Assembly (NCBI GenBank): GCA_000002435.2
Contig: CM018793.1
DNA: 64,000 nucleotides
Strand: one strand, 5' to 3'
Source of the DNA: Giardia intestinalis
Lineage: Eukaryota
Shown here: positions 2,552-61,785 of the stretch, one piece after another
Layout of the letters: each line of letters begins with the position of its first letter
Numbering within the stretch: position 1 is the stretch's first letter
Program-made: the position numbers and the translations under genes
Notes under the pieces: model-generated
Databases searched by the model: none
What the model was told of the DNA's origin: nothing
The model's input: the letters and a program-made list of their open reading frames with translations, nothing else

Positions 2552-3841
2552 ATGCAGTCGCTGAAAGACCATGAATACGATTACAACGAGATTGACAATA
2601 TTCTCAACCAATACCTAAATAGATACGGCATCTCCTACACTGGATCCGTAGCGGCAGATGAACAGTCTCAGACCCGTAAGGATGTATTAACAGCAACTCC
2701 AGTGAGTTCGGCCCTTCGACCGAGTCAACTAGGGCCAGCTCGTGAGAATGATGCTACTACATTGCATGACACACCACGGACTGTGGGGTATGAAGCTAAA
2801 CAAGAAGGCTCCTTGATGATGACGCAGAACGATGGTGACGACCCAGTGCAACTTGATTTGGTAGACTTGGAGGACCAGTCACATGTCAACGAATCTAGGA
2901 CGGTTCCCAACGTGGAACGCAACGAACGAAAGATAGTCGCACACGAGCCATCCATCTCCACACTTACCAGAGATATTAATGCATTGGAACAACGGGTTCT
3001 TGGTAACCAGAGGCCCAACGTTCATTTGGCTAACCTAGAAGATGACAAGAGCAGGGCAGAGACAGCCATCCAGCTCGATGACCTGGACGATGTACTAACT
3101 TTGAGTGAAAACATGAGCGAATCTCTTAGTCAGCACACACGTGCCCTTGCACGACTTCAGTCTAATCTTAGAAACTACAGTAGACATACGAATTCCGCAA
3201 ACATTTTATCTAATACTCGGAAATATTCAGGATACAAACATGCACTTGCCCAGCAGTACTACACTAAGGGGAAGCGTCCACCATCATGTCAGCGGACAAA
3301 TAGAAGTGGGCCATCGACCTCACACAGAATGTCCTCCTCACTTCCTGACATGTCTCTGCAAACACCAAAGACTCTGACGAAGAGTACTAACAGCAATCCC
3401 ATTTACACATCAAGATCCGAGAGTCAGCGGAGGTCACAGTCCCAAACACAATACTCGCGCAGCGTGCTGGACGACAGCCTGCTGGACTACCCGTTCGACA
3501 CCAGCAACAAGCTTGTCGGGGCGAGCAGGGCTCTCGACGCCGACGCCGCCTCGACGGTCGTCGTCAACGGGAAGCTGACGTCCATCGAGGCCAGAACCCT
3601 GTTGGGGCGGGTGCACACCATGGAGCTTCTGCTCGACCAGTCGGCCCAGACGATCGGGGAGCTGCGCCGCGAAAACGCCAGGCTGCAGCGGGTCATCCTG
3701 TCCAAGGACGCATCGACGCAGAAGATCTTGACCCTCGAAGCAGAGGTCCTCGCCCTACGCAAGAGCCTCAAGCAGTCCGAGGAATCCCGACGGCGACAGG
3801 CCACCCTCATCGAAAGACTCAAGGCAGATTCTGGCGTATGA
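2552..3841 (+). CDS. Hypothetical protein, 429 aa. It has a Ser/Thr/Asn-rich low-complexity middle and a C-terminal coiled-coil, and contains copy A of the 288-bp duplicated segment
   Basis: Long ORF with AAAAATAAAAAC about 10 nt upstream of ATG. Heptad-like RRENARLQRVILSKDASTQKILTLEAEVLALRKSLKQSEE. Confidence 0.55.
   Translation: MQSLKDHEYDYNEIDNILNQYLNRYGISYTGSVAADEQSQTRKDVLTATPVSSALRPSQLGPARENDATTLHDTPRTVGYEAKQEGSLMMTQNDGDDPVQLDLVDLEDQSHVNESRTVPNVERNERKIVAHEPSISTLTRDINALEQRVLGNQRPNVHLANLEDDKSRAETAIQLDDLDDVLTLSENMSESLSQHTRALARLQSNLRNYSRHTNSANILSNTRKYSGYKHALAQQYYTKGKRPPSCQRTNRSGPSTSHRMSSSLPDMSLQTPKTLTKSTNSNPIYTSRSESQRRSQSQTQYSRSVLDDSLLDYPFDTSNKLVGASRALDADAASTVVVNGKLTSIEARTLLGRVHTMELLLDQSAQTIGELRRENARLQRVILSKDASTQKILTLEAEVLALRKSLKQSEESRRRQATLIERLKADSGV
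3430..3717. repeat. Copy A of a 288-bp dispersed perfect duplicate (partner at 27325..27612)
   Basis: Base-by-base comparison shows 288/288 identity. Both copies give the identical antisense ORF MHPPQQGSGLDGRQLPVDDDRRGGVGVESPARPDKLVAGVERVVQQAVVQHAARVLCLGL in the ORF track. Confidence 0.92.
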
Positions 3842-3878: not shown

Positions 3879-4913
<1,035 letters not shown>

Positions 4914-26742: not shown

Positions 26743-27324
26743 CCGGCGGGCGCGACAAGCTAAAACCAACGGAAATAATCGTATTGGCAGATGGTTTGTG
26801 GTGTGAAATGCGTTCGGCTATGGAACAGCTGATCCAATCCACACTACAGACATCATGTGATACTTGCACGAGACTTCCACGTACTATAGCTCCCCACATA
26901 GGGCGGGCTCCCAAGGCTGCAACAGGGCCACTAGGGGTCTGCTCAGGGAGCCGCAAGGCAGCACCAGCAGACTGCTCCCAACGGTGGTGCTCTTTACGCT
27001 ATCGAGACGGAGGCGCCGTTCTTTGTCCTTTGCCTCTGCTGCTGTGTTAGGGCTTGATCTACCGGGCCTGGCAGGAATAGCGGTACCAGAGGGTGCTACC
27101 ATAGCAGGCGTCCCGGTACGTCTTCCGGCAGGATGGATTGCCATACAATGGAGAGTGTGGTTGAAAACCCTGCTGCTTACGGGAAACCAGTTCGGACCGC
27201 CTGCTGTCTTGGTGTGGCCGTGCTGCCCAGCTGGATCAAGGTAGTAGTCCCACTGAAACCCGTCACCTTCACGGACACCTTCTACCCTCTTGCAAGATAG
27301 GAACTGAGTGCTGAGGACAGTACA

Positions 27325-27612
27325 GAGGTCACAGTCCCAAACACAATACTCGCGCAGCGTGCTGGACGACAGCCTGCTGGACTACCCGTTCGACACCAGC
27401 AACAAGCTTGTCGGGGCGAGCAGGGCTCTCGACGCCGACGCCGCCTCGACGGTCGTCGTCAACGGGAAGCTGACGTCCATCGAGGCCAGAACCCTGTTGG
27501 GGCGGGTGCACACCATGGAGCTTCTGCTCGACCAGTCGGCCCAGACGATCGGGGAGCTGCGCCGCGAAAACGCCAGGCTGCAGCGGGTCATCCTGTCCAA
27601 GGACGCATCGAC
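27325..27612. repeat. Copy B of the 288-bp dispersed perfect duplicate: an orphan gene fragment in intergenic DNA between tRNA-His and the ankyrin gene
   Basis: 100% identical to 3430..3717. Flanks are unrelated on both sides, and downstream it runs antisense into the ankyrin gene, so the ORF 27308..27844 is an artefact. Confidence 0.92.
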
Positions 27613-27674
27613 ACCCAATCACAATGAAGAGTGGATCAAGAATATTCACTTCAAGATTTTGCGGAGAGTGGCCA

Positions 27675-30290
27675 CTAGTTGCCTGAGGTTCCTCCTTTCC
27701 CTTCGAGGATGGCTATTATCTTCTTTTGACCCAACTGCCTGGCTATGTCAAGGGCAGTCCTTTTACCATTATCCCTCATGTCTCCCTCCTCTTCCAGGAG
27801 CAGCCTGGCACACTCTGTGTGGCCATTCTGTGCTGCAAACATAAGGGCTGTTAGTCCACCACTCCCTTGCATTCCCCCCTCCTTCTCTAGGAGCAACTCG
27901 ACACACTTCTGATGGCCGTTCCCTGCTGCCCACATGAGAGCAGTCTTACCATTGCTATCCTTCATGCACCCTTCCCTCTCTAAAAGCAGCTCGACGCACT
28001 CTATCTTATTGTTCTGTGCTGCAAACATAAGGGCCGTCATTCCACCACTCCCCTGCATACGCCCTTCCTTTTCTAAGAGTAGCTTGACACATTCTATGTG
28101 ACCTTCCTTTGCTGCAGCTATGAGGGCGGTCCATCCGTCAGTCCTCTGCATGCGCCCCTCCTTCTCTAGGAGTAGCTCGACGCACTCTGGGTAGCCTTTC
28201 TCTGCTGCCCTCATCAGTGCTGTTTCCCTGTAGGTGAGCCAGTGGCCTATCTTGACATCCCCCGTCGCTGTCTGTTTCCCCTGGAGGGGAGCAAGTGCCT
28301 TCACAGTCGTCAAATCGTTTCTGTCGACAGCTCTCATGAGCGCTGTGACTCCATCCTTATCGGTGGGATCGAGGAGCTCCACGATGTCCTTGCACCCCGC
28401 CCTCGCTGCTATGATCAGTGCAGTGTCTCCATTGCTATTCTTTTTGTCCTTGTCAGAAAGGTACTTCTTGACTGTTGTGACGTCCCCATCCGCAGCAGCG
28501 CGCATGAGTGGGGTCCAGGATGAGACATCATGCTCACTCGTGCGCTTACAGAGCAGTCTGGCACAGTCTGGATGACCATATCTCTCGGCTACATCGAGGG
28601 CGGTCTCTCTATCATTATTTTTTATATCCTTTTCTCTCTCTAGGAGTAGCCTAGCACAGTCTGAGTGGCCATATTTTGCTGCACACATAAGAGCGGTCCA
28701 TCCGCCACTATCTCTCATGCCTCCCTCCTTCTCCAGGAGTAGCTTAATACATTCTAGGTGACCTTTCTCTGCTGCAAACATGAGGGCTGTCATTCCATCA
28801 CCCCTCTGCATGCACCCCTCTTTCTTTAGGAGCAATCTGGCACAGCCTGTGTGCCCGCTGTGTGCTGCAAACATAAGGGCGGTCCATCCATTATTATCTC
28901 TCAGACCTCCCTCCTTTTCTAGGAACAACTCGACGCACTCCGGGTGGCCATACCATGCTGCAAACATGAGGGCGGTCCATCCACTACTATCCCTGAGACC
29001 CTCCTCCTTCTCTAGAAGCACCTTCGCTGCCCCTGCATGACCACGTGCTGCTGCCCTCATCAGTGCTGTTCCCTTACAGATGGGCCAGCGGCCTATCTTG
29101 ACATCCCCCGTCGCTTTCTGTCCCCCCTGAAGGGGGAGGAGGGCCCGCACGGCCGGTAGGTTGCTTCTATCAGCAGCTCTCATGAGGGCAGTGACTCCAT
29201 CCTCGTCGGTGGGATCGAGGAGCTCCACTATGTTCTTGTGCCCTGCCCTTGCAGCTATGATTAGCGCAGTCTCGCCGTCATTGTTCTTCTTATCTTTGTC
29301 CGAAAGGTACTTCTTGACCGCCTCAACGTTTCCGTCTGCAGCAGCGTTCATGAGGGGCGTCCAAAACGAACCTTCATGCTTGCGAAGAAGCAAAGCTATA
29401 TCTGTGTGCTTGTTCATGAGGGCATGCATAACGGCGGTGTTTCCGTCCTTATCCTTCATCTCCTTCTCGTGCTCGAAGAGGATCTCCACTGCTCCCTGGT
29501 GGCCCTGACGTGCAGCCCACATGAGTGCCGTCATCCCAGTGATATCTGCACGCCTCTTCTCATGGAGACTGCTCTTGATTGCATTGGTGTCCCCAAAGTA
29601 TGCAGAGTAGATAAGGTTTGTCCAGCCTAAGGCATCACGCTCGCCTTTGCGCTCACAGAGCAATCTGACACAGCCTGTGTGGCCATTGTATGCTGCAAAC
29701 ATGAGAGCAGTCCACCCATTACTATCTCTCATGCCCCCCTCCTTTTCTAGAAGCAGTCTGGCACACTCTGTGTGGCCTTTCTCTGCCGCAAACATGAGGG
29801 CTGTCATTCCACCACTCTTCTGCATGCATCCTTCTTCTTCTAAGAGTAGCTTAACGCACTCTGTGTAACCATTTTGTGCTGCAAACATGAGGGCGGTCTT
29901 ATCATTGCTATCCTTCATGCGCCCCTCCTTCTCCAGGAGTAGCTTAATACATTCTAGGTGGCCGTTCTGTGCTGCAAACATGAGGGCGGTCTTGCGGTTG
30001 CTATCCCTCACGCCGTTTTCTTCCTTCACAAGTAGCTCTACCACTCTTTCGTGCCCACGCACTGCAGCTATCATTAGAGCTGTTCCATCACGTATGACCC
30101 AGCGGCCTATCTTGACACTCCCCTTATTCGGTCCAAGCTGAGTAGGTTGATCATCAATAATCCTTTCCACTTCCTCCGCATTACCTTTGTAAGCAGCCCA
30201 CATGAGGTCAGTTGCAAAATAGTCCCTCGTAAGAGCAAAAGTGCCAACTTCTTCGCCTTCAACTTCTCTAGCAGGAACGTCACTCAGCAT
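27675..30290 (-). CDS. Large ankyrin-repeat protein ('protein 21.1'-like), 871 aa, about 24 ankyrin repeats with an internal ~300-aa higher-order duplication
   Basis: Repeated TALMFAAQNGH/TALMWAAGNGH units. Two near-copies of ...TPLM(N/R)AAADG(N/D)V...VKKYLSDKDKKN..GDTALIIAARAG.K.IVELLDPTD.DGVTALMRA.DR..L..V.AL.PLQG.Q.ATGDVKIG(R/H)W. Confidence 0.85.
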   Translation of the reverse strand: MLSDVPAREVEGEEVGTFALTRDYFATDLMWAAYKGNAEEVERIIDDQPTQLGPNKGSVKIGRWVIRDGTALMIAAVRGHERVVELLVKEENGVRDSNRKTALMFAAQNGHLECIKLLLEKEGRMKDSNDKTALMFAAQNGYTECVKLLLEEEGCMQKSGGMTALMFAAEKGHTECARLLLEKEGGMRDSNGWTALMFAAYNGHTGCVRLLCERKGERDALGWTNLIYSAYFGDTNAIKSSLHEKRRADITGMTALMWAARQGHQGAVEILFEHEKEMKDKDGNTAVMHALMNKHTDIALLLRKHEGSFWTPLMNAAADGNVEAVKKYLSDKDKKNNDGETALIIAARAGHKNIVELLDPTDEDGVTALMRAADRSNLPAVRALLPLQGGQKATGDVKIGRWPICKGTALMRAAARGHAGAAKVLLEKEEGLRDSSGWTALMFAAWYGHPECVELFLEKEGGLRDNNGWTALMFAAHSGHTGCARLLLKKEGCMQRGDGMTALMFAAEKGHLECIKLLLEKEGGMRDSGGWTALMCAAKYGHSDCARLLLEREKDIKNNDRETALDVAERYGHPDCARLLCKRTSEHDVSSWTPLMRAAADGDVTTVKKYLSDKDKKNSNGDTALIIAARAGCKDIVELLDPTDKDGVTALMRAVDRNDLTTVKALAPLQGKQTATGDVKIGHWLTYRETALMRAAEKGYPECVELLLEKEGRMQRTDGWTALIAAAKEGHIECVKLLLEKEGRMQGSGGMTALMFAAQNNKIECVELLLEREGCMKDSNGKTALMWAAGNGHQKCVELLLEKEGGMQGSGGLTALMFAAQNGHTECARLLLEEEGDMRDNGKRTALDIARQLGQKKIIAILEGKGGTSGN

Positions 30291-47325: not shown

Positions 47326-48690
47326 ATGACCATTGTTCCTGGTCGAAACATTGACAAGGGATTTGCACTGATTAAGGAGGCCGTCGTAAGCGACAATGCC
47401 AAGAAGTATCCTGAGGCATATGAAAAGTATAAGAAAGGAATTGAGCTCATCTCCATTGGCCTTACGTCTGAGACCATAAAGGGTCGAAAGGAAAATCTAG
47501 AGAGTTATCTCGAAAAGGCCAGGTTTAGGATGAAACAACTTGAACAGGTCCTGGTTACCGCACGCGAAAAGGCCAACATGAAAGGTTTGGGACCAAAGCA
47601 AAGTCCTGCTCCTGCACAGCCAAAGAAAGATTTGACACCTCAAGAGCCTCGTAAGAATAATTCTGCCAACGACAGTGTAGAAGACTCAAAGCCAAAGAAA
47701 GCGATTAAGCAGAAGACTGGGGAGGATGACGCCCTCAAGGCTGCGATCTCTAATGTAATTATTCGCATGAAGCCTGATGTTAAATGGGATGACGTTGTTG
47801 GTCTTACAACGGCTAAAGAGGCCCTCAAAGAGGCTGTCATTCTGCCGTTTAAATTTCCCCAGCTTTTCCAAGGCAAGCGCGAGCCGTGGCGCGGGATCCT
47901 CCTGTACGGATGCCCCGGCACCGGCAAGTCGTTCCTCGCGAAGGCGGTCGCTGCAGAGTGCGACGCCACCTTCTTCTCTGTCTCGAGCTCGGACCTGGTG
48001 TCGAAGTACGTCGGCGAGTCTGCCCGCCTCATCAAGGCCCTCTTCGAGCTGGCCCGCGCAGAGAAGCAGGCCGTCATCTTCATCGACGAGATTGACGCCC
48101 TTGCCTCTGCTAGGGGCGGCGGAGAGGAGAGCGACGCGTCTCGCCAGATCAAGACCGAGTTCCTCGTGCAGATGCAGGGCGTCGGCAAGACCGGCGGGAA
48201 CGTCCTGGTTCTGGGCGCGACAAACTACCCGGAGGCGCTCGACAGCGCCATCCGCCGCCGCTTCGAGAAGCGCATCGAGATCGTCCTCCCAGACGCCGCT
48301 GCCAGAGCAAATATCATAAAGAATTGCATCGGCACTACGCCCAATGTGCTAGCAGATGAGGATATCACTGAGCTCGGACAGCAAACAGAAAACTACTCTG
48401 GCTCTGACCTCAGCATATTGTGCAAGGAAGCTCTCATGGACCCCGTGCGCGTGTTGCAGAAGGTGTCCTACTTCCGCCTCAATAAGATCACAGGCATGTA
48501 CGAGGTTTCAGCATCAGACATGCCCGGCGCTGAGAAGAAAGACTTTATGGATATTCCCAACGATAAGCTGACGGTTCCCTATGTCACTGTGAGTAGCCTG
48601 TTGCGTGCCAAGGCAGCCGTGAAGTCGAGCGTCTCCCAAGCTGACAAGTCGCGCATAGCGAAGTTCACAGCGGAGTTCGGCTCCACCTGA
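47326..48690 (+). CDS. VPS4: Vps4 / SKD1 AAA-ATPase (ESCRT-III disassembly)
   Basis: N-terminal MIT domain (FALIKEAVVSDNAKKYPEAYEKYKKGIELIS). Walker A GCPGTGKS, Walker B IIFIDEIDAL, SRC/sensor region and Vps4 C-terminal helix. TTAAAACAAA directly upstream of ATG. Confidence 0.92.
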   Translation: MTIVPGRNIDKGFALIKEAVVSDNAKKYPEAYEKYKKGIELISIGLTSETIKGRKENLESYLEKARFRMKQLEQVLVTAREKANMKGLGPKQSPAPAQPKKDLTPQEPRKNNSANDSVEDSKPKKAIKQKTGEDDALKAAISNVIIRMKPDVKWDDVVGLTTAKEALKEAVILPFKFPQLFQGKREPWRGILLYGCPGTGKSFLAKAVAAECDATFFSVSSSDLVSKYVGESARLIKALFELARAEKQAVIFIDEIDALASARGGGEESDASRQIKTEFLVQMQGVGKTGGNVLVLGATNYPEALDSAIRRRFEKRIEIVLPDAAARANIIKNCIGTTPNVLADEDITELGQQTENYSGSDLSILCKEALMDPVRVLQKVSYFRLNKITGMYEVSASDMPGAEKKDFMDIPNDKLTVPYVTVSSLLRAKAAVKSSVSQADKSRIAKFTAEFGST

Positions 48691-54035: not shown

Positions 54036-57000
54036 ATGGGGGACAGAAACCTGGACTGGAACCGGACGACCGCCCCGCTCCCGTTCGTGTGGTCGGACAT
54101 GGAGCCGGCGATCTACGAGCTCAGCGAGTCGTTCCTCCCCGTGGACCTGTCCGCCTCCCACCTCGCGCTGGGCAGGTCGTCGTTCCTCTCGCTCTTCGAG
54201 GACGAGCTGGGCGCCGACGAGGCGAGGCGGGGCTACGACGGGCTTCTGCCGGAGAGGCCGGGACCCTGCACCCTGGCGGCCTCGCCCCTGCCGGCCAAGC
54301 GGGCGCACGTGAGCTCCCTACTGGCGGAGGCCAGGCGCGGCGCATTCGAGTCCCAGCTGGAGCGGAGCGTCCTGCCCAGCTCCACCGTCTTCGCGCGCCT
54401 GGAGCAGGCCCTCCAGCGACCCCCGGAGGGCAGCAAGGCGGCGCTCCAGGCGGCCCTGTTCTACGTGCTCGGCCTCCGCATAAGCTGCGCCCTGCCCCTC
54501 CCCCTGGACCCCGACACCGTGGTGAAGCGGGCGCTCCTCCTCTTCCTCCACAACGGCGGCTCCTTTTTCAGGCAGGTCCTCAAGCGGTTCGGCGTCCTCG
54601 CCGGCGAGTGCGCGGTCTCCCTCTCGGACTTGAGGGCGGAGTCGACGCAGAACGCAAGCAAGCAGCTCCCGCCTCCCCTGACCCACTGCATCCAGGTCCT
54701 GCATCTTGTGCTGACCTCCCTGAACCTGCGGGGGGTCACCGTCTTCGAGCACACCGTCTACGATCGCCTGGACGGCTCAGTCGACTGCTCGCCCTACCTC
54801 CACACCTTCGAAGGCTTCGTCAGGGCTCTGGTCCACCCCCTTGCGCTCCTACTCTCCAAGCTGATCCAGGCAGACGCAGGCCCGCACAACAACACCTTCA
54901 ACAACGCGATCGCCCGCTGCGTGGCTTGCTGCCGCCCGGTGGCCCTGCTGAGACAGGCGCTCCTCCTCCTCCTGGGCCCGCTGGGCGACCACAAGCAGGC
55001 CCGGAAGTGCCGGAGCATCCGCAGGATGGCCCTGGAGGAGCAGGGCAGCGCCGGGTCTTGCGCGATCAAGACCGTCAAGCGGCTTCCGCCCCCGCGCTTC
55101 CGTGGCTACGTCAACCCCACATCCTCGTCTGTCGCGGCCCTGCTGCGGTTCTTCGAGGGCTCGTTCAGGCCGAAGGACACCCCCTTCTCGTCCGGCAACG
55201 TCTCCCCCTACGCCGATAAAGGCGTCGCAGACCAGATGGCAGAGTGTGCAAGCGTCATTACGGCCTTCAACGCCCGCCAGCCCAACAGGCGGCGCCCGGG
55301 GCTCTTCCCGGGGCTCGCAGAGGAGTACGCCAACCGGAGGGACGAGGCCGCGCTAGGCCTCTTCCAGCTGCTCCCCAGGCCGGACGTGCGGATCGGCCTG
55401 CAGTCCCTGGCAGACCTCCACGGCGGGTACATGGCCATGCGGTACAGCTGCGACGCCAGAGAGTCAGTCATGTCGCGCTCCCAGGAGACCTCTGTCGGCG
55501 GCCGGAGCGACCTGGACGGCGGGTACGACGCCGAGCTGGAGCGCACCCTCGGCAACGTGGTGGTCACCAGCGACTACCGCATGTACCTCAACAGGGTCAA
55601 GCGGGGGCTGACCGCGTCCTTCCCGTTCTCGGGGAGGCCGGTTGCGAAGGGCAATCTGCCCTACTTCGAGCGGTGCATAGAGAAGGTGCTGTCCTTCAAC
55701 TACCACGAGGAGCGGTTCCGCAGCATCAAATACCACGAGCTGGTCAACGTGCTCACCTACGCGCTTCCCCTGGACGTCCAGCGGGCGATGCTCGTCAGCA
55801 TTTCCAACGAGGCCGACTGCGTCCTGGAGCACCAGTTCTACCACCTGATCCGAGAGGTCGACATGCCGGCGTTCCTCTCGTCGCTGCTCCGCCTGGCGCT
55901 GTGCGGGGTCCCCCACATGCTCGAGACGGTCCTGTCGGCCAAGGCGACTGCGGGCACGACGAAGGACGCTGAGAAGGGCGCGTTCTCCAACAACACCCCG
56001 TCGTCCACGCGGCACGTCCGGGAGTCTGTGCTGAAGAGCTGCCTCCACGTCCTTCTCCTCCTGCAGGCGAAGGCCCGCCAGGTCCACCCGAGCGTGGGCC
56101 TTTTCGTCTCCAGCATAATACAGCGGTGCAACGGTCAGGGGTGCGGGCTCGACGCCGTCATCGCCACCATGTGCCTGCCTGCGGCCGCGTACATAACGGG
56201 CGTGGACCCGCGGACCGCCGCGCTGGGCACGTGCCTTTTCCTCCCCGGCCAGGCCGCGGACGCGCTCGCTCCGGACGAGCGGGTGGCCGACGCAGGCGAG
56301 TTCCTCCAGGCCAGGCCCGCCAAGCAGGGCGCCCCGCCGGACCCGGCGCTAGACCCCGCGAGGCCCCTCCACAGCATGGCGAGCGGCAGGCGGCTGTTCT
56401 GCCTGCTGACGGCGTCGCGCTGCTTCTACGGCTACATCTCGCACTCCGCGTCCCGGGCCCAGGAGGCCCTCGCCCTCTACTCGAAGGTGAGCGCCAATTA
56501 CATCTCGTACATCCTGCAGTCCTCCAGCACGGCGGCCAGCCAGGGGTCTGCCGCTGCCGCCGCAAGCCAGGCCCTTCCAGACAACCTCAGCCAGACGACC
56601 GTCTTCACCAGGGGCGCCCTGCAGCGCAAGGCAGGGGCCGCGGCGCAGAGCGTCCCGGGCGGGGGCTCCAGGCCGCCGATGGCGTACATCCCGAACAACC
56701 TGGCCAACCTGATGGAGTTCCTGCGCGGAGACAATAGCACCAACAACCCCGCCAACATAAACACGGCGGGCACGCTCACGTGCAACTTCCCGGGGTACCA
56801 GCTGTCCAAGGTCAACAACCTTTCGTCCATCGTCGTGCTTCTGAAGATCGCCAAGCACATACTGCCCTTCGCGGCGGGGGACTACTCGCGCATATACGGG
56901 GTGTTCGAGCTGCAGGGCCTCCCCGCCTTCCGCGAGTACCTGACGAAGCTCATCTACCAGCTCTCCATAAGCCCGTGCAGCGAGGACAGCTGGCGCTGGA

Positions 57001-57224
57001 CGAGGGACGTCGTCGCGAAGAACGCGGCGATCTTCGCAGAGTTCGAGCGCGCCGCCTTAATAGCCTTCACCGAGAAGTACCTCCTGCCCGACCGCCACCC
57101 GTCGCTGGCCCACTACGGGTGGCTCTACGAGAGCAGCCTGCCCGACGCCCCGGAGCAGTACGCGGCGGAGGAGGCCGTTGCGCTCTCCCAGCTCCACGCG
57201 GGATGGCCCTGTAACCGCATCTGA
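54036..57224 (+). CDS. Hypothetical protein, 1062 aa, encoded by a strongly GC-rich ORF
   Basis: 3.2-kb uninterrupted ORF with GAAAACACAAAA directly upstream of ATG. The many same-region ORFs on both strands are stop-free by-products of high GC. Confidence 0.6.
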   Translation: MGDRNLDWNRTTAPLPFVWSDMEPAIYELSESFLPVDLSASHLALGRSSFLSLFEDELGADEARRGYDGLLPERPGPCTLAASPLPAKRAHVSSLLAEARRGAFESQLERSVLPSSTVFARLEQALQRPPEGSKAALQAALFYVLGLRISCALPLPLDPDTVVKRALLLFLHNGGSFFRQVLKRFGVLAGECAVSLSDLRAESTQNASKQLPPPLTHCIQVLHLVLTSLNLRGVTVFEHTVYDRLDGSVDCSPYLHTFEGFVRALVHPLALLLSKLIQADAGPHNNTFNNAIARCVACCRPVALLRQALLLLLGPLGDHKQARKCRSIRRMALEEQGSAGSCAIKTVKRLPPPRFRGYVNPTSSSVAALLRFFEGSFRPKDTPFSSGNVSPYADKGVADQMAECASVITAFNARQPNRRRPGLFPGLAEEYANRRDEAALGLFQLLPRPDVRIGLQSLADLHGGYMAMRYSCDARESVMSRSQETSVGGRSDLDGGYDAELERTLGNVVVTSDYRMYLNRVKRGLTASFPFSGRPVAKGNLPYFERCIEKVLSFNYHEERFRSIKYHELVNVLTYALPLDVQRAMLVSISNEADCVLEHQFYHLIREVDMPAFLSSLLRLALCGVPHMLETVLSAKATAGTTKDAEKGAFSNNTPSSTRHVRESVLKSCLHVLLLLQAKARQVHPSVGLFVSSIIQRCNGQGCGLDAVIATMCLPAAAYITGVDPRTAALGTCLFLPGQAADALAPDERVADAGEFLQARPAKQGAPPDPALDPARPLHSMASGRRLFCLLTASRCFYGYISHSASRAQEALALYSKVSANYISYILQSSSTAASQGSAAAAASQALPDNLSQTTVFTRGALQRKAGAAAQSVPGGGSRPPMAYIPNNLANLMEFLRGDNSTNNPANINTAGTLTCNFPGYQLSKVNNLSSIVVLLKIAKHILPFAAGDYSRIYGVFELQGLPAFREYLTKLIYQLSISPCSEDSWRWTRDVVAKNAAIFAEFERAALIAFTEKYLLPDRHPSLAHYGWLYESSLPDAPEQYAAEEAVALSQLHAGWPCNRI

Positions 57225-57556: not shown

Positions 57557-58315
57557 TTACTTGAAGACCTCCATGAACTCCTCAACTGGCTTATTGCAAG
57601 CAGGACAGACCTTGCTGGCCACGTCCTTCCCGCAGTCCTTGCAGAGGACGTAGTGCTTGCACGGCATGCAGACCAGGTTGGGGGCGTTGGCGCGGCACTT
57701 CACGCACTTCGTGTACTTCTTCGAGTTGAGGAGCTTGCGGATCTCGCCCAGGCACTTCTCGAGGGACTTGTTCAGCTGCTCCTCCGAGATCTCCGCCCCC
57801 TGGTCGATCCCCGAGCAGGAGAGGAAGTAGAACGCCTCGAAGAACGAGCGGAAGATGGCCATGTTGTGGCTCTTGACCTCGGCCTGCTGCGACTTCTTGG
57901 CCATCTCGGTGTAGGTGGCCGCGACCCTCTGCCGGAGCTGCTCCAGCATCGCCGCGTCCATCGTCTCGATGGTCTTCAGCCGGAGGACCTTGGCCGCCTC
58001 GAACTGCTTCGCCCTGGAGGCGTGGTTGAGGGCGGAGAGCTTGCCGGCGTCCCGCAGCCTCCCCTCCTTCTCGAAAAGGGCCTGGATCAGCTCGAGGTTC
58101 CCCCTCTTTGCCGCCGCGATCAGCGCGAAGGACCCGTCGTTCGAGACCAGGCCCGCCTCTGCGTCGACCAGCTCCAGGGCGACGGCGGTGTGCCCGGCCT
58201 CGGCGGCCCACATGAGCGCCGTCTTCCCGTCTGCGTCCCTCTGGCCTGCGTCCGCGGCCTTGTGGGCCCTGACGTAGTCCAGCCTGTTCTCCTTGGCCGC
58301 CTCAATAAGTGCCAT
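57557..58315 (-). CDS. Ankyrin-repeat protein with a C-terminal C3HC4 RING finger (candidate E3 ubiquitin ligase), 252 aa
   Basis: Ankyrin repeats DGKTALMWAAEAGHTAVALELV... RING-HC spacing CVKC-x11-CKH-x3-CKDC-x8-CPAC at the C-terminus. Confidence 0.75.
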   Translation of the reverse strand: MALIEAAKENRLDYVRAHKAADAGQRDADGKTALMWAAEAGHTAVALELVDAEAGLVSNDGSFALIAAAKRGNLELIQALFEKEGRLRDAGKLSALNHASRAKQFEAAKVLRLKTIETMDAAMLEQLRQRVAATYTEMAKKSQQAEVKSHNMAIFRSFFEAFYFLSCSGIDQGAEISEEQLNKSLEKCLGEIRKLLNSKKYTKCVKCRANAPNLVCMPCKHYVLCKDCGKDVASKVCPACNKPVEEFMEVFK

Positions 58316-58477: not shown

Positions 58478-60584
58478 TTACTCGTGAGATCGTGGAGCAG
58501 CTTGGCGGCTGTTGCGACCACCGAGGCCCGGTATACGGCTGTCCCTAAGGAAAGATGCTATCTCAGAGTAGCCCTTGGCCTCAAGCTTATCAAAGAGGGA
58601 TTCGTCAGACTTGTCTATTAGATGCCCCTCCTTTTCAAATAGCAGCTTCACTATCTCTAAGCGGCCGCCATACGCTGCGTGCGTGATAGCGGGTAAGCCA
58701 TGGGGATCCAGCATGCAGCCTTCGCGCTCCATCAACAGCTGCACTACTTCTGCATGATTCTCAGAGGCAGCCTTCATGAGGGCGGTCGCATTACAAGTAT
58801 TCCCTGGGCCACTCTCATATTGCATTAGCAGTTGTACTGCTGCTACGTGGCCGCATACTGCTGCTTGTATTAGCGCCGTCCCAGTATGTGTCCATCGCTT
58901 CTTCTGAATGGGTATAAGTGCGCTTACTGCTAATGTGTCGCTTATTTTTGCGGCTCGCATGAGCGCTGTGACGCCCCTATCATCGGTTGGGTCGAGAACC
59001 TCCACTACGTTTTCGTGTCCTGCCTCTGCCGCAAGGATCCGAGCCGTCTTGCCTTGTCTGTCGGTCAGGTCCTCCTCGTACGGAGCCAGAACAGAAGCAG
59101 CCTCCGCATGGCCCTCCTGTGCAGCAATCATCAGAGCAGTACGGCCGTTCTTGCTCTTCCTCCCATGCTCATGAGGGATGAGAATCCTAGCTACCTCAGG
59201 ATGGTTCCCGTGTGCGGCGTGCATGAGCGCGGTCCAGCCGTTTTTATCTTTGATACCCTTCTCCTTCTCAACAAGCAGCTCAACAGGCCCACCGTGCCCC
59301 TGCTGGGCCGCGTGCATGAGGGCCGTCATCCCCCGCTTGTCGCGCTGGCCGATACAATCTTTCTCGTTGGCCAGCATCCGGACGGTCTCCATGTCATTCG
59401 TGTGTGCAGCATATATTAGTTTGAACAAGGAGAGGTCCGTCTGGGTGCCAACCACTTTCATTTCACTATTGGATTGTGTAAACTTATCCTCCAGTGCTTT
59501 TATCCGGCCTTCAAGCGTGCCAATCCCGGTGGTCTTAACTCTGGGTTCTTGCCCCAAGGCGTTGGCTTCACTTGGCCTGCTCTCAAGAGCGCCCTTGAAA
59601 GAGGCAGTCTCAGCAGACTTGGCGTCGAGGACTGCCTCAAGAATAGCAATCCTAGCATTAGCATTATTCAGAGCAGTCTTCAGGGAGCCGCATTCGTACT
59701 TCAGCACCGCATATTGAGCCCCCAGCTCACTAACTGGGATGTCGAATGTAGCGAGCGTCTCATGCAGCTCCCTGGCCGTCGGCCTCCTCTCTGGCTCTAG
59801 TACAAAGATCCTCTCCAGAACATTCTGCATGAAGCCATCAGTGATGCCACTCAGGTCCGGCCTCCACCCATCGACGAAGACCTCTGCCGGCTCCTTGCCC
59901 CCCAAGAAGTCCGGTCTCCTCAAAGTAGTAAGCTCGTAGACGATGGCCCCGAGGTTCCACATGTCGGAGGCGGGGCTGGCCTCGTTGCGGAGGAGCACCT
60001 CGGGGGCCACGTATGCCATTATTCCCATGAGAGTGCTCCCACTCCACAGGGCGTCCTTGCAGAGGCCGAGGCCAGTGATGACGAAGTGTTCACCATCTGC
60101 GCTGATAAGGACGTTGGCAGGCCTGAGGTCACAGTGGACAAGTCTCTCGGTATCTGCCCCACTGGCCCCGTAGAGGTAGGCGAGGGCGGCGGCGACCTGC
60201 CTCAGGACGGAGAGAATCACAGCGATAGGGACGAGAGTCTTCCTTCGTTTGTGCTCGGTGAGGAGGTGCTCAAGGGTCTTGTCTTGGCGATCCGTAACGA
60301 CGTAGATGAGGCCTTCGTCCTCGACCACTTGATGGTGCTTGAGGACTCCTGGATGGGAGAGGTCGGGGAGGGCGGTCAGCCCACGCTTTAGCATCCACAC
60401 CGTGCTGACCCAGACCGTCGAGCCGGATCTCCTTCACAGTGAGGTAGGGGTATCCCCTGAGAGAGTAGACTGTTCCCGCGGCACTTTCACTAAGCACATC
60501 ATCCAGCCCCTCGTAGAGCTCCCTGGGGGTGAACTGCGGGGCACTGAGAGCCACCGTTGCAGACCCAGACGAGGCGGCGTACAT
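58478..60584 (-). pseudogene. NEK-like protein kinase fused to C-terminal ankyrin repeats, interrupted by a frameshift at about 60390-60405. Motifs are degenerate (HCDLRPAN, GLG for DFG), so it is probably a pseudokinase
   Basis: N-lobe in ORF 60270..60584 (LSESAAGTVYSL...YLTVKEIRLDGLGQHGVD) is in a different frame from the rest (LKRGLTALPDLSHPGV...HCDLRPANVLI...YVAPE, then 6 or more ankyrin repeats). The supplied ORF 58478..60400 starts on GTG, not ATG. Confidence 0.7.
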
Positions 60585-60885
60585 CTTGGTTTCATTTTGG
60601 TAATCTACCGTTTTGGAAACGATCCGTTTTACATGGGTTCATATCTACAGGTCTACAGCAGTCCCGTGCCTGTAGGGGCTTCTGCATAAGAGATGAGAAG
60701 GCCACCTGTGCGACCATTTCACCCACCGGTGTCCCAGTGCTGACCGAGGGTGAGAAGGCCTGCTCCCCCTAGCCTCTGTGGAAACGGGTGGTTGTGTGCC
60801 TCACTGACAGCCACCACTTCATTAGGGTGTCTGTTCGCTGCACAACTGGAGGGAGATTCTATCCACCGCCGGATGCAACCAACAG

Positions 60886-61785
60886 TTAGGCGCGTTCACT
60901 CATGGACTTTCTGGGCGGCATCCGTAGCCGGGGCTCCGTCAGTCCAATACCCTCACTCTCAAGAAGGGACACCACCTCGGAATGACCCTCCATATCAGCT
61001 ACACAAAGAGCAGACTCCCCGCCTATGTCCTTCTCCTTCTCTAGTAGCAACTTAACACAATCTAGACGACCAAAGTATGCTGCAGCTGTGAGGGCGGTAA
61101 AGTCTTTGTCCTTCGTCATGCCTCCCTCAACATCCAGGAGTAACTTCACTACCTCGGTGCGACCGTTTGCTGCTGCCCACATGAGGGCCGTCAAGTCGTT
61201 GCTGCTCCTCATACCGCCTTCGCACCTCATCAGCAGCTTTACCGTCTCAACGTGTCCAAGCACTGCGGCGACCATCAGGGCCGTCCCGTCGTATATCTCT
61301 ACCATCCCTGCCGTAACAAACCTCGCCACCATCCTTGCTTGATAATGGATGTAGCGCTTCACCGCGTCCACGTCGTTCCTCTTAGCTGCCTCCATAAGTG
61401 TGGTGACGCCATCCTCGTCCACGCTGCCTTCATCATCCATTTCTGAAGGCTCAGTTGGGTTTCCTGCGCCCTCTTCGCTCGTGTCCTTCTCTGGTGCGAG
61501 GGGCGGGGTGTCGTCGTGCTCCTGAGAGCAGTGATCCGAATCATCTGCAGACGACATTTTTATTCCATGGCCACAAAGGAAACGCATGTACTGGTAAACT
61601 TGCGATTCACGGTATTGTTTACAGATCATCCAGATAGCGCACCAAACATGAACTGCATGCCCTGGGTTCCCTCTGCCCTTCTTGCCTTGTGTGGTAAGTG
61701 CCCAATGAGAGATGACTTCAATTGTGGAGTTGTAGTCTGCTGGGCACCAGTGCAGGGTGGGCACTAGAGCTTCGGACTTCTTCAT
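60886..61785 (-). CDS. Ankyrin-repeat protein, 299 aa or shorter if it starts at the internal MSSADDSD; acidic N-terminal region
   Basis: GVTTLMEAAKRNDVDAVKRY, GTALMVAAVLGHVETVKLLM, LTALMWAAANGRTEVVKLLL, FTALTAAAYFGRLDCVKLLL. Confidence 0.7.
   Translation of the reverse strand: MKKSEALVPTLHWCPADYNSTIEVISHWALTTQGKKGRGNPGHAVHVWCAIWMICKQYRESQVYQYMRFLCGHGIKMSSADDSDHCSQEHDDTPPLAPEKDTSEEGAGNPTEPSEMDDEGSVDEDGVTTLMEAAKRNDVDAVKRYIHYQARMVARFVTAGMVEIYDGTALMVAAVLGHVETVKLLMRCEGGMRSSNDLTALMWAAANGRTEVVKLLLDVEGGMTKDKDFTALTAAAYFGRLDCVKLLLEKEKDIGGESALCVADMEGHSEVVSLLESEGIGLTEPRLRMPPRKSMSERA

Follow-up and report, generated by a model that had tools for sequence, protein, structure and literature searches.

The question raised by this stretch of the Giardia genome is why one of its genes should carry, inside its coding sequence, a sharply bounded block of high GC content. 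The stretch, referred to below as the window, comprises 64,000 nucleotides of contig CM018793.1 of Giardia intestinalis (assembly GCA_000002435.2); it is dense in genes, has no introns, is about 49% GC and includes ankyrin-repeat genes with a 93-nt period. The gene in question is Vps4a, which is GL50803_101906 in the nomenclature of PMC12611102 and whose 454-residue product was found by exact-sequence look-up to match KAE8305545.1 / XP_001705076.1 of Giardia duodenalis WB. Pfam places an MIT domain at amino acids 9-73, an AAA domain at 191-319, AAA_lid_3 at 344-375 and Vps4_C at 399-452; the gene encodes a Vps4/SKD1 AAA ATPase in which the expected domain set is complete. Comparison with related sequences indicates that the GC-rich block is very probably the footprint of recurrent interlocus gene conversion between Vps4a and its paralogue Vps4b, confined to the part that encodes the AAA ATPase domain. 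The principal features of the gene are as follows.

47326 to 48690, plus strand: Vps4a coding sequence (listed open reading frame, exact protein look-up, Pfam domains)
47350 to 47544, plus strand: MIT domain, amino acids 9-73 (Pfam), paralogue-specific and outside the tract
47866 to 48306, plus strand: probable gene-conversion tract common to Vps4b, 441 nt or 147 codons, amino acids 181-327, GC 0.66, GC content at third codon positions (GC3) 0.88 (codon alignment)
47896 to 48282, plus strand: PF00004 AAA ATPase domain, amino acids 191-319 (Pfam), wholly within the tract
48355 to 48681, plus strand: AAA lid (amino acids 344-375) and Vps4_C (399-452) (Pfam), paralogue-specific and outside the tract

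Composition of Vps4a

In 150-nt windows along the gene, GC content rises from 0.44-0.49 (47650-47899) to 0.60-0.67 (47800-48349) and then falls to about 0.50. The tract at 47866-48306 has a GC content of 0.660, compared with 0.454 in the 5′ part of the coding sequence and 0.518 in the 3′ part, and just 0.02% of the 441-nt windows in positions 1-53000 reach this value. The shift is synonymous, falling almost wholly on the third codon position: the tract has a GC3 of 0.88 versus 0.47 upstream and 0.67 downstream, and GC3 climbs in 20-codon windows from 0.30-0.60 to 0.85-1.00, while the first and second codon positions are nearly flat. Two-fold degenerate sites of the tract end in C 25 times and never in T, and in G 25 times and in A once. 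When the bounds of the GC3-rich segment were sought by a likelihood change-point search with the GC3 series alone as input, they fell at 47872-48288 in Vps4a and 47857-48288 in Vps4b. An earlier, sequence-only reading of the window had placed a GC-rich block at about 47881-48300 and equated it with the conserved Vps4 AAA core. The block was confirmed, with change points some 10-20 nt from those coordinates, and the tract does take in the whole Pfam AAA domain. Among the 38 long open reading frames of the window, only Vps4a and ORF 2552-3841 have 40-codon GC3 values that span from 0.33 or less to 0.95.

Gene conversion between Vps4a and Vps4b

Vps4b (KAE8305497.1, GL50803_16795) shares the 4,018,654-bp WB chromosome record of Vps4a, and their accession numbers, 48 apart and the sole guide to distance, suggest a separation of a few dozen genes. 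No second Vps4 copy was detected in the window, where tblastn and blastn with Vps4a matched Vps4a alone. The assemblage-A Vps4b DNA was represented by a short-read contig from a read set (L003), with a product identical to the WB reference protein XP_001704753.1. Both genes were also taken from DH (sub-assemblage A2), GS_B (assemblage B) and Giardia muris, Vps4a only from an assemblage-B-like metagenome contig and from P15 (assemblage E), and Vps4b only from a third Giardia lineage, labelled X (Logan run SRR22936437).

WB Vps4a and L003 Vps4b are identical at 440 of the 441 nucleotides of the tract, the exception being a single silent site.

47961, plus strand: sole mismatch of the tract, C in Vps4a and T in L003 Vps4b, synonymous (TGC/TGT); DH Vps4b has C (codon alignment)

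The first flanking mismatches stand directly at the edges, at 47865 and 48307, and the similarity collapses beyond them, with 47 mismatches in the 158 nt upstream (47708-47865) and 22 in the 57 nt downstream; taken in full, the 5′ and 3′ flanks have mismatches at 52.8% and 45.9% of the aligned nucleotides. Where both genes encode the same amino acid, they use the identical codon in 144 of 145 cases in the tract, and in the flanks in 52 of 110 (Fisher p = 2.6e-25). In a test of the Sawyer/GENECONV type, in which the variable sites were permuted 20000 times and the longest identical run was scored, the observed runs of 345 (WB Vps4a/L003 Vps4b), 299 and 145 nt compare with permutation maxima of 46, 37 and 54, and none of the 20000 permutations reached the observed values. 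The Vps4a and Vps4b proteins of WB at NCBI are likewise identical throughout the tract.

The two regions of the gene also support opposite groupings. In the quartet formed by the two genes of assemblages A and B, 34 sites of the tract group the sequences by genome and none by orthology, whereas in the flanks orthology is favoured by 135 sites to 10 on one side and 93 to 7 on the other. The orthology assumed for the flanks is supported by a gene neighbourhood that has been kept: the methyltransferase and metallophosphatase genes that neighbour Vps4a in WB recur next to it in the B-like contig, GS_B, P15 and G. muris (with 60% identity between the G. muris and WB methyltransferases), and an NFACT-R gene adjoins Vps4b in A, B and X. 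The 229-residue gene upstream of G. muris Vps4a proved not to be the NFACT-R gene found upstream of G. duodenalis Vps4b, the two being alike in length by chance.

Strong purifying selection, without any conversion, might be supposed to have kept the two AAA cores alike since their duplication, since no part of Vps4 is better conserved across eukaryotes than this core (protein identity to distant homologues 65-73%). However, such selection would have had to preserve all but one of 145 synonymous codons between paralogues while orthologues came to differ by 9% (A-B) and 25% (A-G. muris), and every one of the 34 informative tract sites sides with the genome. This explanation is already refuted and retains virtually no credence.

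The mosaic might instead be an artefact of assembly, if reads of the paralogues had been collapsed or swapped over the similar region, and two ENA metagenome gene models, P0123 (516 residues) and P0128 (514 residues), do fuse a Vps4a N-terminus to a Vps4b C-terminus. The same mosaic is nevertheless present in six independent assemblies (the window, the Logan contig, DH, GS_B, the ENA metagenome and G. muris), each with a lineage-specific tract that holds a few differences between the copies and with unique flanks on either side, and the WB proteins deposited for the two genes agree across the tract; an artefact is accordingly regarded as extremely improbable. As for the fused models themselves, one of the assemblage-B type and one of the assemblage-A type, their junctions lie inside the equivalent of 47866-48306. 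They are probably jumps of the assembler across the identical tract, and possibly products of a real unequal crossover between the Vps4a and Vps4b loci.

The proposal of the sequence-only reading that Vps4 paralogues had exchanged sequence by interlocus conversion is therefore supported by the block of paralogue identity, the opposite groupings and the permutation test, and nothing was encountered that speaks against conversion itself, as distinct from the GC-biased step considered below.

An older WB annotation of Vps4b (XP_001704753.1, P0005) is named 'Topoisomerase II' and starts 36 codons upstream to give 519 residues; the current WB record has 483 residues and the name Vps4b, and the GS record keeps 'Topoisomerase II'. 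Papers on the Giardia ESCRT machinery describe Vps4A, B and C as Giardia-specific paralogues, of which Vps4C is absent from assemblage B (PMC8394649, PMC10758263, PMC12611102); neither conversion nor concerted evolution comes up in them. When the tract by itself was used as a protein query, only short fragments and no Giardia entry were matched, so that the third paralogue, Vps4c (GL50803_15469), was not obtained as a candidate donor. The Giardia-specific motif WRGILLYGCPGTGKSF had no match among the JGI metagenome contigs scanned.

Recurrence across Giardia lineages

A near-identical, sharp-edged tract is seen in four pairs of Vps4 genes from the same genome or the same assemblage. Besides the WB/L003 pair, the Vps4a and Vps4b genes of GS_B have two mismatches over 47854-48279, those of DH five within the tract, and those of G. 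muris three over 47840-48275. Within genomes the copies differ in the tract by 0.2% in assemblage A, 2.3% in B and 3.2% in G. muris (the last measured over the interval defined in A), while orthologues differ by about 9% (A-B), 4.4% (A-E), 14.5% (A-X) and 25% (A-G. muris). The quartet of A and G. muris agrees with that of A and B, with 104 tract sites in favour of grouping by genome and none in favour of orthology. Amino acid replacements in the core are correspondingly carried by both copies of a genome: LFEL, ASARGG and PEALD in A stand against LFEM, ASSRGG and PESLD in B, and many G. muris-specific core residues are found in both of its Vps4 proteins. Because G. muris Vps4a and Vps4b are on separate chromosome-scale records (CM016925 and CM016929), exchange is independent of linkage.

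The layout of the homogenised sequence varies by lineage. The G. muris pair (L004:2001-3326 and L005:2001-3221) has a further upstream patch equivalent to 47721-47804, 84 nt with one mismatch, and an assemblage-B pair (the ENA-contig Vps4a, L008, and the GS_B Vps4b, L002) has 47 identical nucleotides in common at 47758-47804; WB has neither patch.

The homogenised tract exists in separate versions in assemblage A, in assemblage B and in G. muris, so that every lineage must have undergone one or more events after each split. The alternative of a single ancient domain replacement, or of independent recent partial duplications in each lineage, draws on the flanks of G. muris, where nucleotide saturation prevents proof that its two genes are orthologous to those of G. 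duodenalis (29 sites versus 14 on one side and 19 versus 20 on the other). Apart from the lineage-specific versions, it is opposed by tract edges that vary by lineage and by the pattern of substitutions within assemblage A, where DH has one shared derived change and five unshared differences and WB has one unshared difference; moreover, each such event would itself be gene conversion. This alternative is considered quite improbable, and recurrent conversion is preferred.

Tempo, direction and edges

The shared change in DH is 47901 C>T, derived and present in both copies. Together with the small number of unshared differences, it indicates that homogenisation comes in episodes, recent ones among them, over times comparable to the divergence of sub-assemblages. 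The direction of copying can be read for one segment at the 3′ edge of the tract.

48280 to 48306, plus strand: 3′ extension of the tract in A and E only, about 27 nt (eight-sequence codon alignment)

The tract ends at about 48279 in B and at 48275 in G. muris. At this edge, Vps4a of B and of G. muris reads IEVSLP and every Vps4b of the G. duodenalis clade reads IEIVLP; Vps4a of A and E also reads IEIVLP, from which it follows that the extension was copied from Vps4b as donor into Vps4a. In the three codons newly brought into the A/E tract, ATT GTT CTA, which is kept in Vps4b of B and X, has become ATC GTC CTC. Immediately outside the tract, the residues that distinguish the paralogues are conserved across assemblages, with FKF versus MMF or LMF upstream and ANIIKNC versus KNI(L/I)RSG downstream, and differences between the two proteins in where they localise and in their partners have been reported (PMC12611102).

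These patterns are best explained by recurrent non-reciprocal homologous recombination that copies the AAA-encoding segment from one Vps4 gene into the other, presumably during break repair with the paralogue as template. The two AAA cores thereby evolve as a single sequence, while the MIT domain and linker and the lid and C-terminal parts stay paralogue-specific. The edges may be fixed because flanks of such divergence no longer pair, or, alternatively, because selection removes conversions that overwrite paralogue-specific residues. It is conceivable, though unlikely, that selection for identical ATPase cores has kept so domain-precise a tract in place since before the split of G. muris and G. 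duodenalis. An equally speculative extension is that identical cores might serve mixed Vps4a/Vps4b hexamers or common core partners while the MIT and C-terminal modules diverge. If so, conversion would be a maintained device for the modular evolution of paralogues rather than a passive by-product of their similarity.

Origin of the high GC content

The sequence-only reading had also attributed the elevated GC content to GC-biased repair. GC-favouring mismatch repair or fixation during the exchanges would have built up, at least in part, the high tract GC3 of the G. duodenalis clade, a proposal to which slightly less than an even chance is assigned. Tract GC3 is 0.88 and 0.87 in the A copies (flanks 0.43-0.67), 0.80 and 0.78 in B, 0.82 in E and 0.88 in X. 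In A the composition change points lie 6-18 nt from the edges of identity, and the 3′ composition edge of B (48273) falls near the end of the shorter tract of B itself (48279); overall, a silent-site GC excess with matching edges is found at both edges in A, in E and in X, at the 3′ edge only in B, and not at all in G. muris. An internal control adjoins the tract in Vps4a.

47740 to 47865, plus strand: protein-conserved segment, unconverted in A, about 30% different from Vps4b in nucleotides, GC3 0.40 (alignment)

Since this segment is conserved in protein and yet has a low GC3, conservation alone does not yield GC-ending codons. The turn from ATT GTT CTA to ATC GTC CTC in the codons of the A/E extension also speaks for a link between GC content and conversion.

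Several observations weigh against GC-biased conversion. The tract of G. muris has a GC3 of 0.63 and a GC content at four-fold degenerate sites of 0.50, with flanks at 0.63-0.79 and so no excess, and the change-point search found no GC3-rich segment in the G. muris tract. Polarised substitutions in the tract run from G or C to A or T rather than the reverse by 12 to 1 in B and 10 to 1 in E, and by 4 to 5 in A, small counts obtained by parsimony. With G. muris as outgroup, saturation left 22 of 34 sites unpolarised. An excess of changes towards G or C among those fixed in the tract was thus not seen, the local exception being the three such changes in the codons of the A/E extension. The 5′ third of the B tract is converted and yet has a GC3 of only 0.4-0.7. 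A further GC3-rich patch occurs outside the tract, where conversion between Vps4a and Vps4b does not explain it: the equivalent in Vps4b has a GC3 of 0.4-0.6, and the two genes are 50-77% identical there.

48406 to 48495, plus strand: second GC3-rich patch, GC3 0.8-1.0, in Vps4a only (GC3 windows)

Finally, the codon pattern of the tract, which is coding throughout (C 0.58 and G 0.24 at four-fold sites, 25 C and no T at two-fold sites), is intermediate between the gene for glyceraldehyde-3-phosphate dehydrogenase (GAPDH) and the window's C-and-G-rich genes and does not tell selection and biased conversion apart. The surplus of losses in B and E indicates that the GC-rich state is old and eroding in two lineages. 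It arose after the split from G. muris and before the divergence of A, B, E and X; at present A keeps it, while B and E are losing it. GC-biased repair as the cause of the tract GC is thus plausible but undemonstrated; it fits the edges in assemblage A and fails to account for the lack of an excess in G. muris and the net loss of GC in B and E.

In the principal competing explanation, conversion homogenises the tract but the high GC3 reflects selection on codon usage, for accuracy or efficiency in the catalytic core, towards the C- and G-ending codons of highly expressed Giardia genes, without any bias in repair. The GAPDH gene of the window (3879-4889) has a GC3 of 0.78 and likewise favours C-ending codons; A and B have diverged half as much at synonymous sites of the tract as at those of the flanks (22% versus 44% of the codons for a shared amino acid differ), as constraint on such sites would have it; and G. 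muris converts the tract without a gain in GC. On the other hand, expression level is no explanation when the same mRNA has a GC3 of 0.47 upstream, and the neighbouring 47740-47865 is highly conserved in protein without being rich in GC3. The GC3 edges also track the conversion edges of each lineage (48288-48306 in A, about 48273-48279 in B), and the tract goes beyond GAPDH at two-fold sites, where the 25 C and no T compare with 66 and 16. Codon selection acting alone on composition is therefore rated as a realistic possibility, though not a likely one.

Comparison with known systems

Enrichment of GC3 in converting paralogues is said to have been described for mammalian Hsp70 genes by Kudla et al. 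in 2004, for histone genes by Galtier in 2003, and for yeast and Arabidopsis duplicates by Benovoy et al. in 2005. As in these cases, GC3 in the Vps4 genes of the G. duodenalis clade is far higher inside the converted segment than elsewhere in the gene, and the edges coincide. Unlike in those cases, the effect is absent in G. muris and decaying in B and E, so that the link between conversion and GC content is lineage-dependent and its causality undemonstrated. For Giardia, the idea of GC-biased conversion has been cited in connection with ribosomal DNA (PMC10123126).

Long-lasting concerted evolution has precedents in mammalian gene pairs that have stayed alike for more than 100 million years (PMC2720389) and in fungal ribosomal-protein paralogues (PMC6993855). 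The Vps4 genes resemble these in that paralogues are closer within a genome than orthologues are between species, in the sharpness of the borders and in the involvement of several lineages. They differ in that the tract is limited to one domain of a three-module protein and lies at the same place in G. duodenalis and the distant G. muris, whose two copies occupy separate chromosomes. The GOT1 paralogues of Tigriopus keep islands of divergence although they undergo conversion (PMC3728101). Vps4 similarly combines homogenised segments with strongly diverged ones, the latter likely protected by selection for distinct functions, except that here the diverged parts are whole domains (MIT on one side, lid and C-terminal domain on the other). 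No literature on gene conversion or concerted evolution of Giardia Vps4 was found in a search of incomplete coverage. The Vps4a/Vps4b case is a fresh example of a textbook process, for which no earlier report on these genes was found.

Its main value lies in the recombination biology of Giardia, the history of the Vps4 paralogues, and the design of reagents and assemblies. Conversion between these genes shows that homologous recombination between dispersed loci is active in Giardia, for which recombination and sex are under debate; it spans the genus, with events as recent as the split of sub-assemblages A1 and A2. Trees of full-length Vps4 proteins would unite the copies of each species and mimic species-specific duplications, whereas the flanks and the gene neighbourhood indicate one older duplication. 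With 441 nt and 147 amino acids in common, knock-down reagents, probes, primers and antibodies directed at the core cannot separate Vps4a from Vps4b, and short-read assemblies yield chimeric gene models across the tract. The contrast between a GC3-rich tract in the G. duodenalis clade and none in G. muris offers a small natural experiment on the GC bias of conversion in diplomonads.

Other features of the window

The sequence-only reading had ascribed the same GC-rich-patch signature to a duplicated fragment of 288 bp. The repeat exists, as two direct copies 23.9 kb apart, and is rich in GC (about 0.58-0.72 in 60-nt windows).

3430 to 3717, plus strand: copy 1 of the exact 288-bp repeat, in the C-terminal part of ORF 2552-3841 (self-comparison, 100% identity)
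27325 to 27612, plus strand: copy 2, an isolated gene fragment between kinase and ankyrin-repeat genes, in the short ORF 27308-27844 (self-comparison)

The 5′ edge of the repeat coincides with a step in composition, the GC3 of ORF 2552-3841 rising from about 0.5 to at least 0.9 exactly at 3430; its 3′ edge does not, since GC3 stays high for another 124 nt, up to the stop at 3841, so that only half of the resemblance stands. ORF 2552-3841 encodes a Giardia-specific protein without a Pfam match, and its GC3-rich part overlaps the best-conserved part of that protein. In the protein collection no paralogue of it was found besides the 288-bp fragment in the window, and its GC3-rich C-terminus therefore cannot be assigned to a conversion partner.

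Other genes of the window are enriched in GC3 over their whole length. GAPDH (3879-4889, minus strand) keeps its GC3 of 0.78 all along. A GC-rich island at 53.8-58.4 kb (GC 0.63-0.73) contains two adjacent genes, 54036-57224 (plus strand, 1062 residues, no Pfam match) and 57557-58315 (minus strand, ankyrin and RING domains), with GC3 of 0.92 and 0.94 throughout; their four-fold sites are C 0.49 and G 0.42, versus C 0.47, T 0.24 and G 0.22 in GAPDH.

The ankyrin-repeat gene at 27675-30290 (minus strand, 871 residues) consists of units of 93 nt, in which a 78-nt core occurs 13 times (60-91% identity), and contains an internal duplication of 300 nt (28202-28501 versus 29048-29347, 79% identity). 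Units related to those of this gene recur in the kinase-ankyrin genes near 59-61 kb (59251-61286).

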